Assembly (NCBI GenBank): GCA_026066175.1
Contig: GCA_026066175.1_4721.1
Reading direction: 5' to 3' (one strand)
DNA length: 64,000 bases
Source of the DNA: a phage
The notes beneath the pieces were generated by a model. It saw only the letters and a program-made list of their open reading frames with translations, was not told where the DNA came from and ran no database searches. Both the position numbers and the translations under genes were made by a program. This document shows positions 53,758 to 63,931 of the stretch, one piece after another (the first letter of the stretch is position 1; every line of letters begins with the position of its first letter).

Positions 53758-54120
53758 TTATTCTACATTATCTTCTACGGCTTCGGATTCATCCGCTTCT
53801 GCGAAGCTTTCCTGAACCGCAGTGGTATCCCAGTTCGCTGCGTAATCAGCCATGGCTTCGCGCAGCGCTTCTTCACCCGCATCACCAGCCAGGTCAAGTA
53901 CAACCAACCCTTGTGCGACGTTCTGCGCTACGGTATCGATAACCGTTGCATCCTCTTCAAAGCTACGTACCGGTTCAATGGTACCAACATCAACAGCGTA
54001 GTTCGTGGTTGCGGTAAGGACAGCAACCTGTAATGCGTTGCTGTCTTCGTCATGAAGTGCTGCTTCAATACCGATTGGACGGGCCAGTTCTTGCAGTGTC
54101 AATTTACGAATTAAGTTCAT
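53758..54120 (-). CDS. Highly acidic small protein
   Basis: 120 aa, Asp/Glu-rich throughout (e.g. EADESEAVEDNVE at the C-terminus). Confidence 0.45.
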   Translation of the reverse strand: MNLIRKLTLQELARPIGIEAALHDEDSNALQVAVLTATTNYAVDVGTIEPVRSFEEDATVIDTVAQNVAQGLVVLDLAGDAGEEALREAMADYAANWDTTAVQESFAEADESEAVEDNVE

Positions 54121-55033: not shown

Positions 55034-57202
55034 TTAGCTTTCGCAATCATCCGCATCGATGATCTGACCACCAGCAACATTCAACTGGTGATACAATATC
55101 CTCAACGCACGGTTACCCCCAATGGGATACTTCTCGAAGTTGGTCGCAATCGGAATCGCAGAGGGTTTGTCGGTTGCATAGATGCTTTCCGTGATGCTAT
55201 CCACCTGTTTCGGGTTGTTCGCGTAATCCATGAATACGCTTGCGAACCATCCACCGGCGAAGGCGGTGACTTCGCGATGTTCAGATTCACCACAATAACG
55301 TGTTGGTTGCTCTTTACCAGGAGAACTGTACTTATCACTGTTGCTGAGTTTCGACGGCAAACCATGTGCTTGCAGTTTAGGAATACCTACCGCAGACCAA
55401 TCGTTTGCTGTCTTCTCCAACATCATGATGTACGTATCACCAATCGCAATATCGTTCTTGGTGGTTCGCCATTGACCAGAACGACCACGATAGCGTACAG
55501 GGCCTTTCTTCAACGGGAACTCTCGAATCAGGTTCTCCATACGCTCCGAGCCTGCTGCGATACTGTCTGTCGGGATATAGACTTCTGTACCATGGCGTTG
55601 TACGTAACGTAGATGGTCCCATTTATCGTCATCTGTGATACAATGTTTCTCAACAACCTGCTCCACAAACTCAGGACTAACGATATAGTAGTAACGCATC
55701 AATGTGTTCCATGCGGTTTCCAGATCGCCTGCATCCATTACCGGTTTCAGTTCACGCATGATCTGGTCGCCAACACCATTGATATACGGTGCGTTAACAC
55801 GACTTAAACTCATCCTTTTAATTACCGTGCTGTCGTCGAACATAAAGTCCGCAACATTCCCCCATTGGTCTACGGGCATCTCGTCATCTTCCATGATATC
55901 CGTTACGACGAATTTATCACCCGCCATACCGGTAAATTTAAATCCGATACCAGGGACCACATCGTAGGTATACGTGATGGTCACACGCCAGTCATCAAGA
56001 TTCTCCTTACGATAATCACGGGTCGGCAACACATGACGTAGCTGACCGTTCGGATTGCGAATGTCAATACCATGCTCAGCATCAGCGAGGTTCAACCACC
56101 ACATCACCGTCTGATGATGTCTGATGGGTGTACCAGCACGTTCACGTTCGTATTTACGCACCGCATCCTGAATACGGGTATACAGCAGACCGATGGCGTT
56201 TTCATATTTCAGGAATTGACGATACGGAGGACGCATCTTCTCTTCCATCATAATCGCACGCTCGCGGGCTTGACATCCAGAACGACGATGTCGATCGCTG
56301 ACAACATCGATATCCGTTACACGCGCATTCGGCTCAGCGTAAGTGAGATCATCGTAAACATAATCCACACGCTGAAGATTGCACGTCATCATGTCAACGA
56401 CGCTGAGGATAGGATCGATTTCGCGTGTTGCTGCAAGTAACCCATCTTTACGAATACGCTCACCGTTCTCGGGTATTGCTTGATATACCTCGTCATCACC
56501 GTAGAGATTGATTGGGTATCGCGATTTACCTGATGTAATTGTTCGCTTCTCAATACCGGTACTGGTGAAATGCTTCAATACACCACGACGAGCAACACCA
56601 CCATCTTCAATACACTGGTAGAAGCTACCGAAACACACCTTGCAATCGCGACCGTAACCCCACTCGCGTGTTTCTTGATTGATCGCTGGGCTTTCCATCA
56701 AACGAGAATATCGCGGTACAATCTGGCCTCGACGAAGGGAATGGAACAAGTTGGTTGGTCGAAAACGGAAACCGTACTGCTGATGCATGATGTGATGCTC
56801 AGGCACTTCAAGCAAGCGTAGCTCGTGACGGTTACCATCCTCTTGGTTTTCATACAGCACGTAATGCATCGTGTTTGTTTTGATGCTGTTTGCTGTATGT
56901 CCTGGTTGAAACCGCGGAATGATATCTATGATGCGAGATTCAACTGGAAACTCTACTGACCAAGTGTTCTGTCCGTACTGGTATTCAATCCCCGTCGTTA
57001 ATCGGGACGGCTTCGCATCTTTGATAACCAACGCTTGGCTAAGATGTCCACCAAACATCGCAGCGCGCTGTGCTGAGTTATAATGCAATAGCCCGTTAAG
57101 TCCAGTCCCTACACCCGTATACTCCTGTTTAATGGGAATGATTTTACCTTCAGCGATTGCCTGCTTCACAGATTCATAAAGAGGTTTTTCTTTATAATGC
57201 AT
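55034..57202 (-). CDS. Large hypothetical protein
   Basis: Start moved to MHYKEKPLYE (AGGAAG upstream); no family recognised. Confidence 0.5.
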   Translation of the reverse strand: MHYKEKPLYESVKQAIAEGKIIPIKQEYTGVGTGLNGLLHYNSAQRAAMFGGHLSQALVIKDAKPSRLTTGIEYQYGQNTWSVEFPVESRIIDIIPRFQPGHTANSIKTNTMHYVLYENQEDGNRHELRLLEVPEHHIMHQQYGFRFRPTNLFHSLRRGQIVPRYSRLMESPAINQETREWGYGRDCKVCFGSFYQCIEDGGVARRGVLKHFTSTGIEKRTITSGKSRYPINLYGDDEVYQAIPENGERIRKDGLLAATREIDPILSVVDMMTCNLQRVDYVYDDLTYAEPNARVTDIDVVSDRHRRSGCQARERAIMMEEKMRPPYRQFLKYENAIGLLYTRIQDAVRKYERERAGTPIRHHQTVMWWLNLADAEHGIDIRNPNGQLRHVLPTRDYRKENLDDWRVTITYTYDVVPGIGFKFTGMAGDKFVVTDIMEDDEMPVDQWGNVADFMFDDSTVIKRMSLSRVNAPYINGVGDQIMRELKPVMDAGDLETAWNTLMRYYYIVSPEFVEQVVEKHCITDDDKWDHLRYVQRHGTEVYIPTDSIAAGSERMENLIREFPLKKGPVRYRGRSGQWRTTKNDIAIGDTYIMMLEKTANDWSAVGIPKLQAHGLPSKLSNSDKYSSPGKEQPTRYCGESEHREVTAFAGGWFASVFMDYANNPKQVDSITESIYATDKPSAIPIATNFEKYPIGGNRALRILYHQLNVAGGQIIDADDCES

Positions 57203-57233
57203 AGGACTTCCTATTATCGAATTGAGGTACGTC

Positions 57234-57587
57234 ATGTCTAATACGCCCCTGAACGACTTTCTTAAGACAAACCCCGATGACCTCATCCACAACCTTGATT
57301 TCAGGAACGTTGTTGAGATGCATCTGGAATATTTCAAAAATGCCGGTTTGGTTTCTACGATAGACATACCACCCGAACGCGCCTACGAATTCGATGGTAA
57401 CTTTTATGGATTATGTCGGGTTATGCTTGGCGAAGGCAGTGAACCTATGCACTGGGTTACCCTAAGAATCAACGGTTATCGTGATCCTACGGAATACACC
57501 GCCGATGTCCTAACGATGAAGATTGTCGATTCAAGCGCCATCAACACGTTAAAACAGCAATATCGCACAATCCACTACAGCGCTTAA
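57234..57587 (+). CDS. Hypothetical protein
   Basis: Start at MSNTPLNDFL with GAGGT upstream; followed by a plus-oriented terminator hairpin. Confidence 0.45.
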   Translation: MSNTPLNDFLKTNPDDLIHNLDFRNVVEMHLEYFKNAGLVSTIDIPPERAYEFDGNFYGLCRVMLGEGSEPMHWVTLRINGYRDPTEYTADVLTMKIVDSSAINTLKQQYRTIHYSA

Positions 57588-58989: not shown

Positions 58990-60576
58990 TTAGAAGTTGC
59001 CTTTGGTGGTTACAGCATCAACCAGGTTGAACAAATCGATGCTCAGCTTATACACTTCCTGCTGGCTACGGTTAAGCAGCGGGCTATAAGCAGAAGGGTT
59101 GATGTTCGGCATGGTGTATGGAATCGGGGCAGAGCCATCAACGCTGATCTTGAACTGGCTATCCAGGAACAGGTTAATTGCGCCACTTACCATAACCGCA
59201 TTCGGGTTGTTCCCTAACATCGACGGTAAGATGTTGATGATCATATCGGAACGCATCTGCTCAGCAGCACGGTTACAGTCGTAGCCTTTAATGAACGGTA
59301 CCGCATCGGTAACCGCAACCGCCCACTGGCCTGGCATGATGCCCAGCTCTGGGTGACCGTGGTTGTCTGCAATGAAACGGAACGATTCCAGCATGCGATA
59401 CGTCATCGCCGCAGGCATCATGGACGCCAGCGAGGAGCAATAGATCGTTGGATAATCGATCACATCCCAGCTTTGGCTATCCGTTGGCATCCAACCGAAT
59501 TCGGTGGTTGCTGATGTACCGCGACGGGCTTCCACATACGGGAACAGCGTCAGGACATCACGGATATGTTCACCGAAATGCCGTTTCATTTCACCCCAGC
59601 TCAGGCTACCGTTAAACGAAAAGCCCTCATCACGCATGATCTCATTGAACATCGTGTGCGCAACCAGCGGTTGTTCACGGACGTATTGAGAAGCCTCAAC
59701 GTAAACATCCTCGTTGTTGGCCTCGCCGGGATGAGAACCTAGCTCGAAGGTCTGACGAACGGTACCCACGCTATCGAACGCTTTCTTCAGATAGATGGTT
59801 GGGATATTTGTATCGATGCTGGCGGGTTTTACCTTCTCTGTTGCAAAACACAGCGCAGCATCCATACCACGAACAACCGGTTCCTGTTGTGGTCGGTATG
59901 TTGAGTGGTTCACGACGTCCGCATACATCGGGTCGAACTGTTGCATCACGTTCTGCATCGAAGGATCCATGAACTGATTGTCCATACCACCATTACCGAG
60001 CCAACGTGCAGTCGATGCGTAGGTCAGCGTATCCTGCACACGGGTACTGAACTGAACGTCGTTGTTCATTGGGTCATACGCCCCGGTAAGCAGATGGATA
60101 GCATCTTGAGGAGCTGCACGTACAACCTGTTTACCGAACATATCAACGGTGGTTGTTTCCAGCACGATAATGACGTTGGTGAAGAAGAACTGCAATTCGT
60201 TCGGTAGATCTTGTACGCGGGTTGTGTATGCATCCAACGGAACAGAATAATCGGTGTATCCAGACACGTAATGAACACGTTTGCTTCCTGGAGCTAACGC
60301 AACCGATTCTTCTGCTGCCATCATGAAATGGAAACGACGGGTACCCCAACCATTAGCAATCTCTGAAACCCCTTCCGGCTGTGCGGTTTGCTCTAACATC
60401 CCGGCAGCCAGTTTATTGATCGCTGATGGTGTTGTCGCGGTGCCGAATCGCGTTGTGTTAATAAACTCTTCCAGGCTATGCATGCTGTCAGCGTGGAACT
60501 GAATTGGACGACGGTGCACATTGTTGTATGGTGCGGTTTCAACCATCAGGATTTCACGAACATTCATCGATACCAT
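58990..60576 (-). CDS. Hypothetical protein
   Basis: 528-aa ORF. Confidence 0.5.
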   Translation of the reverse strand: MVSMNVREILMVETAPYNNVHRRPIQFHADSMHSLEEFINTTRFGTATTPSAINKLAAGMLEQTAQPEGVSEIANGWGTRRFHFMMAAEESVALAPGSKRVHYVSGYTDYSVPLDAYTTRVQDLPNELQFFFTNVIIVLETTTVDMFGKQVVRAAPQDAIHLLTGAYDPMNNDVQFSTRVQDTLTYASTARWLGNGGMDNQFMDPSMQNVMQQFDPMYADVVNHSTYRPQQEPVVRGMDAALCFATEKVKPASIDTNIPTIYLKKAFDSVGTVRQTFELGSHPGEANNEDVYVEASQYVREQPLVAHTMFNEIMRDEGFSFNGSLSWGEMKRHFGEHIRDVLTLFPYVEARRGTSATTEFGWMPTDSQSWDVIDYPTIYCSSLASMMPAAMTYRMLESFRFIADNHGHPELGIMPGQWAVAVTDAVPFIKGYDCNRAAEQMRSDMIINILPSMLGNNPNAVMVSGAINLFLDSQFKISVDGSAPIPYTMPNINPSAYSPLLNRSQQEVYKLSIDLFNLVDAVTTKGNF

Positions 60577-60577
60577 T

Positions 60578-62164
60578 TTATTTTTTTCCTCTTAAATTTA
60601 CTACATGTTCATTTAATCGAACAACTAATTGCACAAGCTGCTGACGGATATCTGCTGGGCAAAGCATCAATCCTTTACGATCAGCGGGGACTTTCTCAAG
60701 GATTTCAGGGCCTGCTGCTGAAACATCCCAATCCCATTCACAAAACGCATCGGCTACCATGTTAATACCGACAACCGGTAAAGTTGTACGTTCATCTTCA
60801 TACATGGCATGCGGATACAATTTATTGACGGTAATAATCTCCTGTGGTTTTAATTGGTGGATAATCTGATAAACATCATCACGTTTAACCTGGATGCCTA
60901 CGGTTAATGCGGCCAGTTGAGGGAAACCCCAATGGTCTAACAAGCATGCCGCAATCGCTAACGCTTTTGCCTGATGCACGGCTTCAATCGGTGCCAGACT
61001 TCTCGCCGGAAGATGGCTGTCCAACAACCATTGCGCCAGTGCTCGGCATCCGCGATTGATCGGTTTTAACTCAACGGTATCATCATGCTTCGCGTAGGTG
61101 TATCCGTCGTAACGTTTTGCGATACGCGCATACATGTCTTCAACCTTACCGTACGGTGCGGTTTCATCAACGTCGTGTAACACCCGTTCCATCTGGGTAA
61201 GATAAGCGATATCAAGAATGAGTACACGTGGTGAACGTTTATCTTTCACCATCAGCGCATCAATCACACCTTGGCTATCTTCATCTTGCGCATTCCCTCG
61301 CGGAGTTTTCTCACGTATGGGTCCGCTGAAACGACGTTCCGTACAGAGGTTATTCACATAACTGAAAATCAGCGTCACCAGATGCGTACAACTGACCAAC
61401 ACCCCATCTTTAACGACGGGCTGCACGGCTTGGTCCAAATCACGTACCGCAAGGCGTCTGACGATGGCTTGCGAACGCAACCAACCCGGCACTTTTTCTG
61501 TTGACATGTAATCCACGGTCATCGACAACGTGATCTTTTTATCGCCTGTCTGTGCACGGATATAGTCTTCCAGTCGGTCATAAGCTGCGATATCATGAAT
61601 GCGTGTTTTATACATCAGCGACATCGCCACTTCTTCTTTACGTACTGTCCCGTACGTTTTCCCCGCATCAATCAGGAACTCAGCCCAGATAGGCACCATC
61701 AAACGAACGTAAATCGCTAACGCGGTTAACTCAACATAATCGTTTCGTAAATAGGTTTTCTCTGGGATATCATCCTCGCCTAATGTCGTTTTCATATCCG
61801 GCGGTAATTTTACCCAACCTGGGGTATTACACAACGCCAGAATCTCTTCGTATACAACAGGTTTGTAGATTTCACCAACAGCGCGGCTCAGCTCCTCCAT
61901 TTGTTGTTGTGGCGCAATGTAATTATCCATCGCTTCACGTGCTTTAACGAACCCTTCAAAGATATCATCGGTTCGACGTGGGTTCTTTTGCTCTATCCAG
62001 GCAAGATACTTGTTAATCTCTCGCATCTGATTGCTGGCCATATCCCCATCGATCTTGATATACCCTTGGCCTGAAAATTCCACGGTACGTCCATCACGAT
62101 GTTTGATAAGATAATGGTCTAGCTTTTCTTTGCCTTGCGTCGTAATGACGGGCACAATGTGCAT
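60578..62164 (-). CDS. Hypothetical protein
   Basis: 528-aa ORF; preceded by promoter-like motif copy 3 and AAGAGG. Confidence 0.5.
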   Translation of the reverse strand: MHIVPVITTQGKEKLDHYLIKHRDGRTVEFSGQGYIKIDGDMASNQMREINKYLAWIEQKNPRRTDDIFEGFVKAREAMDNYIAPQQQMEELSRAVGEIYKPVVYEEILALCNTPGWVKLPPDMKTTLGEDDIPEKTYLRNDYVELTALAIYVRLMVPIWAEFLIDAGKTYGTVRKEEVAMSLMYKTRIHDIAAYDRLEDYIRAQTGDKKITLSMTVDYMSTEKVPGWLRSQAIVRRLAVRDLDQAVQPVVKDGVLVSCTHLVTLIFSYVNNLCTERRFSGPIREKTPRGNAQDEDSQGVIDALMVKDKRSPRVLILDIAYLTQMERVLHDVDETAPYGKVEDMYARIAKRYDGYTYAKHDDTVELKPINRGCRALAQWLLDSHLPARSLAPIEAVHQAKALAIAACLLDHWGFPQLAALTVGIQVKRDDVYQIIHQLKPQEIITVNKLYPHAMYEDERTTLPVVGINMVADAFCEWDWDVSAAGPEILEKVPADRKGLMLCPADIRQQLVQLVVRLNEHVVNLRGKK

Positions 62165-62218
62165 AACAACCTCTTTTCGCGGTTCCCTGTTAAACGTTTT
62201 CTATAACGCCATCAAGGA

Positions 62219-62250
62219 GGTAATATAAGCGTGAATAATTTTGGATTCCT
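62219..62250 (-). promoter_or_regulatory. Promoter-like motif, copy 3 (degenerate)
   Basis: AGGAATCCAAAATTATTCACGCTTATATTACC on the minus strand, ~55 nt upstream of start 62164. Confidence 0.35.
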
Positions 62251-62366
62251 GCTGAGTCATCGCTCAGCATGCAAGGCATCCCGCCGAAGCGAGACACCTT
62301 GCACTAACGGAAAATACTCGCGTTACCTTCTGAATCGAAGACCCAGAATGCGATACTAAAGCATCA

Positions 62367-63155
62367 TTAGAATGCTAAGCCATCAAAGGCGATTGACGGA
62401 TCATCATCGTCATTTGCGCTAGGCGCGTCCCAACGCGTGTCAGGGGCTGCTGGAGCCGAACTTGAGGCATTAGAGTTACCGTTGTACTGGCCGTTACCAG
62501 CATTACGGTTACCGCCACCGTTGTTATTGTTACGATTGTAGCTGTTGTTACCATTACTTACGCTACGGCTTTCACCGTCAAAGTTGGTTGCGAGGATGCT
62601 TGGTAACACCGCACGATGAATACGTACGAATTCCAGCGCACAAAGCGGAGAAACAACACCGATCTGCAAAGGTTGTCCAGACTCATCAACCAAAGCGTGG
62701 AAACGCGGTGGTTTGAACACGAATTGGATGTTCGGTTTTTGGTATGCGGTTACCGCGATGTACACCGAACCATCGTCATTCTTACCGACCCACGTTGTGC
62801 TCTCGGTAATCTGCTTTTTCTTACCTGGGTTATTGCGATCATCGATAACCTTTTCGTTCTTCATCGCAAAGCGTTGACCAGGTTTACCCTTAGCAACCTG
62901 CTCAAGGATCGCCAGTAGGTTATAGAACGCGTATGAACTCATACGTGCCCAAATGCTTTCAGCACGACCCTGTTGGTCTTTACGTCCTGTATAAACCGTA
63001 ATACGTGGTTGATTTTTAGCGACGCTAATTTTCAATGATGGAATTGAATTACCGCCCTCAACCTTCTCGTCCGCCCACAGTTTCCAGTTGTTGTCGTCAT
63101 AAGCCGTAGGAATGATATTTCCTTGTGGTTTACTGCCCGAATTCCAATTGCTCAT
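62367..63155 (-). CDS. SSB-like protein (globular N-domain, Asn/Gly-rich linker, acidic C-terminal tip)
   Basis: Linker NGNNSYNRNNNNGGGNRNAGNGQYNGNSNASSS and C-terminal ANDDDDPSIAFDGLAF; architecture-only inference, no OB-fold motif recognised. Confidence 0.3.
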   Translation of the reverse strand: MSNWNSGSKPQGNIIPTAYDDNNWKLWADEKVEGGNSIPSLKISVAKNQPRITVYTGRKDQQGRAESIWARMSSYAFYNLLAILEQVAKGKPGQRFAMKNEKVIDDRNNPGKKKQITESTTWVGKNDDGSVYIAVTAYQKPNIQFVFKPPRFHALVDESGQPLQIGVVSPLCALEFVRIHRAVLPSILATNFDGESRSVSNGNNSYNRNNNNGGGNRNAGNGQYNGNSNASSSAPAAPDTRWDAPSANDDDDPSIAFDGLAF

Positions 63156-63229
63156 TTTCAGCCTCGTTACGTAGTGTGAATCAATTTCTGACTTCAGATG
63201 ATAGTCAATATTAGTTAAAAATTACAGCC

Positions 63230-63931
63230 TCAACGAAACATGTCCAACAGAAAACGTTTCGCAAACGGGTCTCGTAATTGGTTAACGCCGAAGCGGGTAC
63301 GGTCTTCCGTGGTTAACGGATTCCATTGACTTTGTTTCGCAAGGTCTAATAACATCCTTTTTACTTTCACCGGTCCGCTATTGAACTGTACCGCTTGGTC
63401 ACCGAACGTACCCAGGGTCATTTTCGTAAAGGGGAGGTTCGCAACCTCTGGACGATCACCCCCCGTCAGTTTGGTTGACCATTGATGTTTTCGTTTCAAA
63501 GTTCCGGTATGGCTCTCTACCAAAATAAGTTCACCAAAACCGGTTCTTGCTAACAGGTCAGAAACATAATGGGTGGTGATATACGACGTCTTGGTTATCG
63601 TGGGTAATTTACAATCCATTGATTCGATATTCGGAAACTTCTCTACCGACGATAGCAACCCATGATAAAGTGCTGCAAGCCCTTTTTGTTTTTCGGTATG
63701 CGGCTCCTTGTGTATGGCGTGCGGATAAACACGCTTGATCGATGCGTAGGTTGGCGCATAAATCCGTAAACGAATATGCGGGATAACTTCGTTAGCCAGT
63801 TGCCGTAATTGCGACAATTCGTTTTGGAAATCACCAGCAATCATTGACACCGGTAATCGGTGCTGCTCAACATCCTCGTAGCTTTCAACGAAGTTACGTG
63901 CTAACGTACGCAGGTTAAAAAGCCAATCCAT
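63230..63931 (-). CDS. Hypothetical protein
   Basis: 233-aa ORF. Confidence 0.45.
   Translation of the reverse strand: MDWLFNLRTLARNFVESYEDVEQHRLPVSMIAGDFQNELSQLRQLANEVIPHIRLRIYAPTYASIKRVYPHAIHKEPHTEKQKGLAALYHGLLSSVEKFPNIESMDCKLPTITKTSYITTHYVSDLLARTGFGELILVESHTGTLKRKHQWSTKLTGGDRPEVANLPFTKMTLGTFGDQAVQFNSGPVKVKRMLLDLAKQSQWNPLTTEDRTRFGVNQLRDPFAKRFLLDMFR

Follow-up and report, generated by a model that had tools for sequence, protein, structure and literature searches.

The Chimallin C gene of a Goslar-like jumbo phage and a family-wide C-terminal tip of the bacterial SSB type

Chimallin C (ChmC) is an essential factor that moves the mRNAs of nucleus-forming jumbo phages out of their protein-walled compartment. 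The name was given to Goslar gp176, PhiKZ gp67 and PhiPA3 gp61 by Enustun et al. (2024, Nucleic Acids Research; PMC11077065), and 201phi2-1 gp123 is listed alongside these three proteins as ChmC, or Imp6, of the Chimalliviridae. Here we describe a ChmC encoded in a 64,000-nucleotide stretch of phage DNA (contig GCA_026066175.1_4721.1; the whole stretch is called the window below), together with the likeness of the family's C-terminal tip to that of SSB, the bacterial protein that binds single-stranded DNA.

Much is known about the orthologues. A ChmC orthologue has a Whirly fold and is a homotetramer by size-exclusion chromatography with multi-angle light scattering; PhiPA3 ChmC binds single-stranded RNA (ssRNA) with a dissociation constant of 58 nM and single-stranded DNA (ssDNA) with one of 184 nM, i.e., RNA is preferred, and phage mRNAs are bound by ChmC in enhanced crosslinking and immunoprecipitation (eCLIP) (PMC11077065). 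The condensates that ChmC forms with RNA need the C-terminal 50-70 residues, where an N/G-rich stretch, required in the PhiPA3 orthologue, gives way to an S/D/E-rich one, and the authors read this tail as low-complexity sequence rich in N/G together with an 'electronegative cluster' (PMC11077065). Knockdown of Goslar gp176 with dCas13d brought plaquing down to ~4%, gave smaller nuclei with less DNA, kept mRNAs in the nucleus as seen by fluorescence in situ hybridization (FISH) and lowered phage protein levels; ChmC lacking its C-terminal tail still supported nucleus growth, and ChmC was detected through proximity labelling with the nuclear recombinase UvsX (PMC11077065). Published work on orthologues further describes ChmC as an abundant early protein localised to the phage nucleus and nuclear shell, whose Asn/Gly-rich disordered tail is required for productive infection, and PhiKZ orf67 tolerates no transposon insertion. 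PhiKZ gp67, also called Imp6, binds the import factor Imp1/PicA directly (bioRxiv 10.1101/2024.03.27.586873).

Identity of the window gene

An open reading frame (ORF) of 262 amino acids (aa), from ATG to stop, spans exactly 62367..63155 on the minus strand, and is preceded by a Shine-Dalgarno-like element within a 74-nucleotide (nt) intergenic region that is 94.6% identical to that of Goslar:

62367..63155, minus strand: chmC (imp6) coding sequence, 262 aa plus stop; ORF, orthologue of Goslar gp176, PhiKZ gp67 and PhiPA3 gp61
63160..63165, minus strand: Shine-Dalgarno-like GAGGCT, read from the sequence, with GAGG 6 nt upstream of the ATG

In tblastn searches of phage genomes, gp176 of Escherichia phage Goslar (HOV27_gp176, annotated "hypothetical protein") showed 99.2% aa identity to the window protein, with 260 of the 262 residues in common, and PhiKZ-like jumbo phages matched at ~32% identity (E = 3e-11). 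PHROG 3284, a group of unknown function, matched with E = 1e-35, and the family member P0064 matches PHIKZ067 and PhiPA3 061, which supports the assignment to ChmC. Pfam held no family for the protein at E <= 10, neither sequence nor profile searches of the PDB gave a meaningful match, and NCBIfam returned only a spurious low-complexity match. On its sequence the ORF is ChmC (Chimallin C/Imp6), an already characterised protein, and nothing argues against this identity. The established role of ChmC is to bind mRNAs and export them at the phage nucleus, and it also binds Imp1; this displaces the role of SSB or recombination mediator that an initial annotation, made from the letters of the DNA, had offered for the gene.

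The gene itself, being known, adds nothing new, and the SSB-like tip found throughout the family is a small new lead. As a whole, the data are best explained by a ChmC of a Goslar-like nucleus-forming jumbo phage (Chimalliviridae) with a Whirly/PUR core, a family tip of the type of the SSB C-terminal peptide (SSB-Ct) and a tail that we infer to act in an SSB-like way; we put the probability of this reading at about 0.93.

The predicted core and the tail

The chain divides into the following parts:

63099..63155, minus strand: low-confidence N-terminal segment, residues 1-19; AlphaFold2 predicted local distance difference test score (pLDDT) <50 for residues 1-15
62589..63098, minus strand: Whirly/PUR-type core, residues ~20-189, two beta-sheet-plus-helix repeats
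Core repeat 1, predicted elements: E40-46, E49-59, E65-71, H74-89
Core repeat 2, predicted elements: E95-105, E113-125, E131-137, E143-146, H165-187
62469..62588, minus strand: disordered Asn/Gly-rich linker, residues 190-229; pLDDT ~30, the Asn/Gly-rich part being 200-229
62412..62468, minus strand: Ser/Ala/Pro-rich segment ASSSAPAAPDTRWDAPSAN, residues 230-248, from the sequence
62370..62411, minus strand: acidic tip DDDDPSIAFDGLAF, residues 249-262, from the family tip statistics

AlphaFold2, run on an alignment of 8 sequences, modelled core residues ~20-189 confidently (pLDDT ~90) and left tail residues 190-262 unstructured (pLDDT ~30). The model and the sequence thus bear out the three-part layout seen initially, in which a globular N-terminal domain is followed by an Asn/Gly/Ser-rich linker and an acidic tip ending in Phe. 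The predicted core has the two antiparallel sheets packed against helices that define the Whirly fold; its top structural relatives are ssDNA-binding Whirly proteins, with PUR-alpha, the PC4-like BPSL1147, YdbC and the phage T5 PC4-like protein further down, and none of these relatives has an oligonucleotide/oligosaccharide-binding (OB) fold. Profile-profile comparison of the N-domain with the OB domain of E. coli SSB returned a probability of 0.1%. As modelled, then, the core fold is Whirly/PUR and not OB, and it falls in the known fold class of Whirly, PUR-alpha, MRP1-MRP2 and PC4 proteins (plant PBF-2 p24 and StWhy2; T. brucei MRP1/2). No sequence-profile match to the Whirly (PF08536), PUR or MRP families of Pfam was found at E <= 10, and since the PDB likewise yielded no match by sequence or profile, the core would be a fold-level Whirly analogue or a very remote homologue rather than a member of the sequence family. 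K42, R51 and R71 of the window protein align with R35, R44 and R63 of PhiPA3 ChmC, the RNA-binding residues altered in its "Rmut" variant, and the "Kmut" positions of that protein are not conserved. The initial annotation had named structure prediction for an OB fold and an ssDNA-binding assay as the checks on its SSB idea; by its own standard the OB-fold idea fails, though ssDNA binding has been reported for an orthologue. Its broader placing of the protein among binders of single-stranded nucleic acid was sound, in view of the PhiPA3 affinities for ssRNA and ssDNA given above (PMC11077065).

The protein ends in ...NDDDDPSIAFDGLAF, as first quoted. Its linker carries Tyr and Arg 'stickers' (Y206, R208, R217 and Y224) and one YNR motif, and SAPAAP of the Ser/Ala/Pro-rich segment occurs in the E. 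coli SSB tail as well (checked against PDB 1eqq/4mz9). The best 35-aa stretch of the tail is 60% N+G, compared with 34% in the next best of the 76 putative genes of the window, where background composition is 4.8% N and 5.7% G; for this genome such a tail lies well outside what chance would give, so that the description of the linker as "unusually" Asn/Gly-rich was apt. Among the proteins of the window, and likewise across the entire Goslar genome, only this one has an acidic last-15 stretch with an aromatic residue at its end. A G/N-flanked 'YNR' unit (e.g., GGGYNRNNGGG) recurs in 21 of 154 ChmC tails, with looser aromatic-x-basic units in 53; examples are window residues 205-209 (nt 62529-62543), P0004-P0008 and PhiPA3 gp61, and the recurrence resembles a Tyr/Arg sticker pattern within N/G spacers. 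Elsewhere in the window, the C-terminus of a 120-aa ORF at 53758-54120 (minus strand; equivalent to Goslar 152320-152682), ...EADESEAVEDNVE, is strongly acidic and does not end in an aromatic residue.

The tip across the family and what it may do

To keep low-complexity sequence from driving the search, the family profile was built from the N-domain only and was searched against 1.84 billion representative proteins. This retrieved 1187 members at E <= 1e-3, of which 936 reached E <= 1e-10. Tail statistics were taken on the best 157 members, mutually <50% identical, and tip counts on 154 non-redundant sequences. A tail of 23-110 residues, with an N+G content of 3-67%, was carried by 156 of the 157, and the residue counts show that the last residues of the family follow the consensus x-F-D-D-D-[I/L/F]-P-[F/W/M]. 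The counts among the 154 tips, numbered back from the C-terminus, were as follows:

Position -1: F 96, W 20, M 20
Position -2: P 122
Position -3: I 68, L 40, F 24
Position -4: D 116
Position -5: D 102
Position -6: D 77
Position -7: F 34, the most common residue

The pattern [DE][DE]-hydrophobic-P-hydrophobic ends 94 of the 154 tips, 17 end in exactly DDDIPF, and 4 in DFDDDIPF. Bacterial SSB contacts its partner proteins by way of a conserved hexapeptide, the SSB-Ct, whose sequence is DDDIPF (PMC5872125), and E. coli SSB ends in ...QSAPAAPSNEPPMDFDDDIPF (checked against PDB 1eqq/4mz9). The ChmC tips of cultured phages agree with this pattern:

PhiPA3: ...GFDDEIPNF
PhiKZ-type (OMKO1): ...AFDEDMPSF
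Ralstonia RP12: ...SSDDIPW
Burkholderia FLC9: ...GSEDLPF
Erwinia pEa_SNUABM_54: ...AFDTDIPF
Bacillus AgentSmith: ...SFDTDVPM

When compared with the E. coli SSB tip under composition-preserving shuffles, 86 of the 154 tips scored z > 3, which speaks for a genuine likeness. The tail of the family member P0101 (...PAAPAAPSVTEPPLDFDTDIPF) reached z = 12.4 against E. coli SSB, with a match over ~24 residues, and was also matched by the NCBIfam SSB model PRK09010 (E = 6e-6, model positions 98-177). That the tip is conserved position by position favours a short linear motif, for docking or autoinhibition, over a generic "electronegative cluster". The term "SSB" occurs 0 times in the ChmC paper (PMC11077065), and we found no publication linking ChmC or the "phage nucleus" with SSB in the searchable literature, which excludes papers in subscription journals.

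Two observations concern particular relatives. Some hold two tandem Whirly modules in one chain of 404-470 aa and retain the linker and a ...D-x-D-I-P-F tip (P0019, P0057, P0101, P0103, P0112 and a 470-aa protein of Erwinia phage pEa_SNUABM_54, L009:43-1455); the tails most similar to that of E. coli SSB are found among these. P0005 and P0006 are named 'uncharacterized membrane protein YgcG' by JGI, probably a mis-annotation arising from the Gly-rich tail.

ChmC resembles bacterial SSB in being tetrameric, in binding single-stranded nucleic acid and in having a low-complexity Gly-rich linker, Asn-rich in ChmC and Gln/Pro-rich in SSB. The family-consensus tip, x-F-D-D-D-[ILF]-P-[FWM], is like that of E. 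coli SSB, and certain members of the family have tails almost the same as the one in E. coli SSB. E. coli SSB phase-separates via its linker and tip. Condensate formation is likewise supported by the ChmC tail, according to published orthologue work. ChmC differs from SSB in its Whirly/PUR core (SSB has the OB fold of PF00436), in the RNA preference of an orthologue and in the degenerate tip of the Goslar clade (…FDGLAF). We interpret ChmC as the full organisational logic of bacterial SSB set on a Whirly core: a tetrameric core, a low-complexity linker and an acidic, hydrophobic-ended tip. Its tail would be expected to act as in bacterial SSB, with a flexible sticker-and-spacer linker that may supply multivalency and a tip that may dock on a partner protein or fold back onto the basic nucleic-acid-binding surface.

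The whole 66-aa tail of the window protein scored z = 4.9 against the E. coli SSB tail (0/1000 shuffles), a significant likeness, with SAPAAP shared, and the tip DDDDPSIAFDGLAF combines an acidic run with a final Phe and has no Pro at -2. Several points count against the preferred reading. The last 15 aa alone gave z = 0.3 against the E. coli SSB tip, which is not significant; the monomer AlphaFold2 model, uninformative for a tetramer, does not dock the tail on the core (pLDDT ~30); all the biochemistry comes from the PhiPA3 or Goslar proteins and none from the 2-residue variant in the window; and the role proposed for the tip is one that we infer. The Goslar clade carries a diverged tip, which can perhaps be read as F-D-G-L-A-F against the consensus F-D-D-D-[IL]-P-F, a diverged or extended form. 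The SSB-like tail of the initial annotation stands for the tail as a whole, much more strongly for the family consensus, and only weakly for the extreme tip of the protein itself.

Other accounts of the same architecture were weighed. A conventional phage SSB at work at the replication fork, in which a linker joins an ssDNA-binding domain of OB fold to an acidic tip, would have just such a tail, and ssDNA is bound by an orthologue (PMC11077065), but the fold of the core refutes it and we give it hardly any credence. A dual-purpose role is a less simple matter: ChmC might be a non-OB analogue of SSB that coats nuclear ssDNA besides chaperoning mRNA, its tip recruiting SSB-interacting proteins of host or phage replication, recombination or repair. 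The family-wide SSB-Ct motif, the P0101 tail with its PRK09010 match, the very abundant homotetramer with a 184 nM affinity for ssDNA, proximity labelling with UvsX and the smaller, DNA-poor nuclei after knockdown all fit such a role, as do the ssDNA-binding Whirly proteins at the top of the structural relatives and a fold class that includes the T5 PC4-like protein 'implicated in recombination-dependent DNA replication'. Goslar, moreover, has no coding sequence annotated as SSB, and phmmer searches of all 1040 Goslar ORFs of at least 50 aa, with the full-length E. coli SSB and its OB domain as queries, found none at E <= 10, a weak negative because T4 gp32-type and T7 gp2.5-type proteins and remote OB folds were not searched. 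On the other side, RNA preference, eCLIP on mRNAs and FISH retention account for the phenotype, and no SSB role has to be invoked; the tip in Goslar departs from DDDIPF; and tail-less ChmC still supports nucleus growth, so that bulk DNA replication can do without the tail. We consider the dual-purpose role unlikely.

The tail could also be a generic phase-separation or solubility module, its tip having no specific partner and its likeness to SSB being compositional convergence. A module of this kind is the interpretation of the ChmC paper, in which condensates are lost on tail deletion (PMC11077065), and the wide variation of linker length and N+G content in the family is consistent with it. 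Against it, conservation is position-specific (P at -2, an aromatic residue or Met at -1, I/L/F at -3) and persists while the linker varies, and more than half of the tips exceed z = 3 after their composition is accounted for, so that we find this account rather doubtful. A bolder version of the SSB-like tail makes ChmC an evolutionary chimera, a Whirly tetramer with a bacterial-type SSB linker and an SSB-Ct tip that works as a docking motif into an SSB network (SSB-binding enzymes of the host, or factors for phage replication, recombination, transcription or import), and possibly the ssDNA-binding protein of the phage nucleus. The position-by-position conservation of the tip in >150 relatives, the ChmC tails near-identical to that of E. 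coli SSB and the failure to find a canonical SSB in Goslar speak for the chimera, which we hold as a tentative possibility with the odds somewhat against it.

For the preferred reading, ChmC with an SSB-Ct-type family tip, the gain is that a vague "acidic, disordered tail" is converted into a specific and cheap hypothesis, namely, which proteins bind the peptide. Binding by SSB partners of the host, or by phage proteins of replication or import, would link mRNA handling, protein import and DNA metabolism at the phage nucleus and, if true, could explain how nucleus-forming phages manage without a recognisable SSB.

Neighbouring genes and divergence from Goslar

The genes around chmC lie on the same strand:

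63230..63931, minus strand: gp177-like (PhiKZ gp66-like) upstream neighbour, BLASTP E = 2e-21; the gene extends past the window end
60578..62164, minus strand: gp175-like downstream neighbour, 528 aa, homologue of PhiKZ gp68, BLASTP E = 4e-34
58990..60576, minus strand: gp174-like next neighbour, 528 aa, homologue of PhiKZ gp69 = Imp1/PicA, BLASTP E = 1e-14

Goslar gp177 is 265 aa long. The match of the gp175-like protein is the gene that adjoins chmC in the PhiKZ-type phage OMKO1, and its PhiKZ homologue gp68 is an nvRNAP (non-virion RNA polymerase) subunit; Imp1/PicA is a nuclear import factor that binds Imp6/ChmC directly (bioRxiv 10.1101/2024.03.27.586873). The order gp177-like, chmC, gp175-like, gp174-like is that of PhiKZ gp66 to gp69, a conserved block, and metagenomic ChmC relatives keep the gp66-gp69 order. 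Every cultured ChmC-carrying phage that was checked, including Bacillus phage AgentSmith and Goslar, also carries the shell protein ChmA, whose locus (Goslar 171-173 kb) has its homologous position outside the window. No Rfam families at the gathering threshold and no tRNA genes were found in window 1-64000, and the two annotated group I introns of Goslar fall outside the region homologous to it.

The DNA comparison indicates that the window belongs to a Goslar relative and not to Goslar itself: identity is 87.8% over 6 kb, with gene order conserved. Protein identity to Goslar is 99.2% for ChmC, 99.6% for the gp175-like protein and 86% for the PicA-like gp174. The two chmC genes differ by 8.7% in nucleotides, 65 of the 69 differences being at third codon positions. 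The core has 51 synonymous codon changes and 0 non-synonymous ones, and the tail has 15 and 2; the totals of 66 and 2 point to strong purifying selection, and the two substitutions from Goslar to the window protein, S235P and V255I, are both in the tail. Given 15 synonymous and 2 non-synonymous tail changes, the disordered tail is also under purifying selection. Artificial recoding, considered in view of 87.8% DNA and 99.2% protein identity, was rejected, since the neighbours range from 86 to 99.6% in protein identity and the intergenic regions hold small indels, a pattern of natural divergence. The cargo-selecting importer (58990-60576, minus strand) seems to change at a much higher rate than ChmC, to which it binds.

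The intergenic regions flanking chmC (62165-62366 and 63156-63229) are 92-95% identical to those of Goslar, above the third codon positions of adjacent genes, a hint that promoter or regulatory elements are conserved there. A scan for sigma-70 promoters and intrinsic terminators gave nothing above shuffle expectation on the strand of the gene. Nucleus-forming jumbo phages transcribe with RNA polymerases of their own. P0001, of 263 aa, is a third close relative of the window ChmC; the 241-kb contig on which it lies bears the label Salmonella enterica serovar Schwarzengrund. Finally, the RNA polymerase beta-like ORF at 55034-57367 (minus strand) has 777 aa, compared with 722 aa annotated for Goslar gp171; either the start codons were called differently or the N-terminal extension is real.
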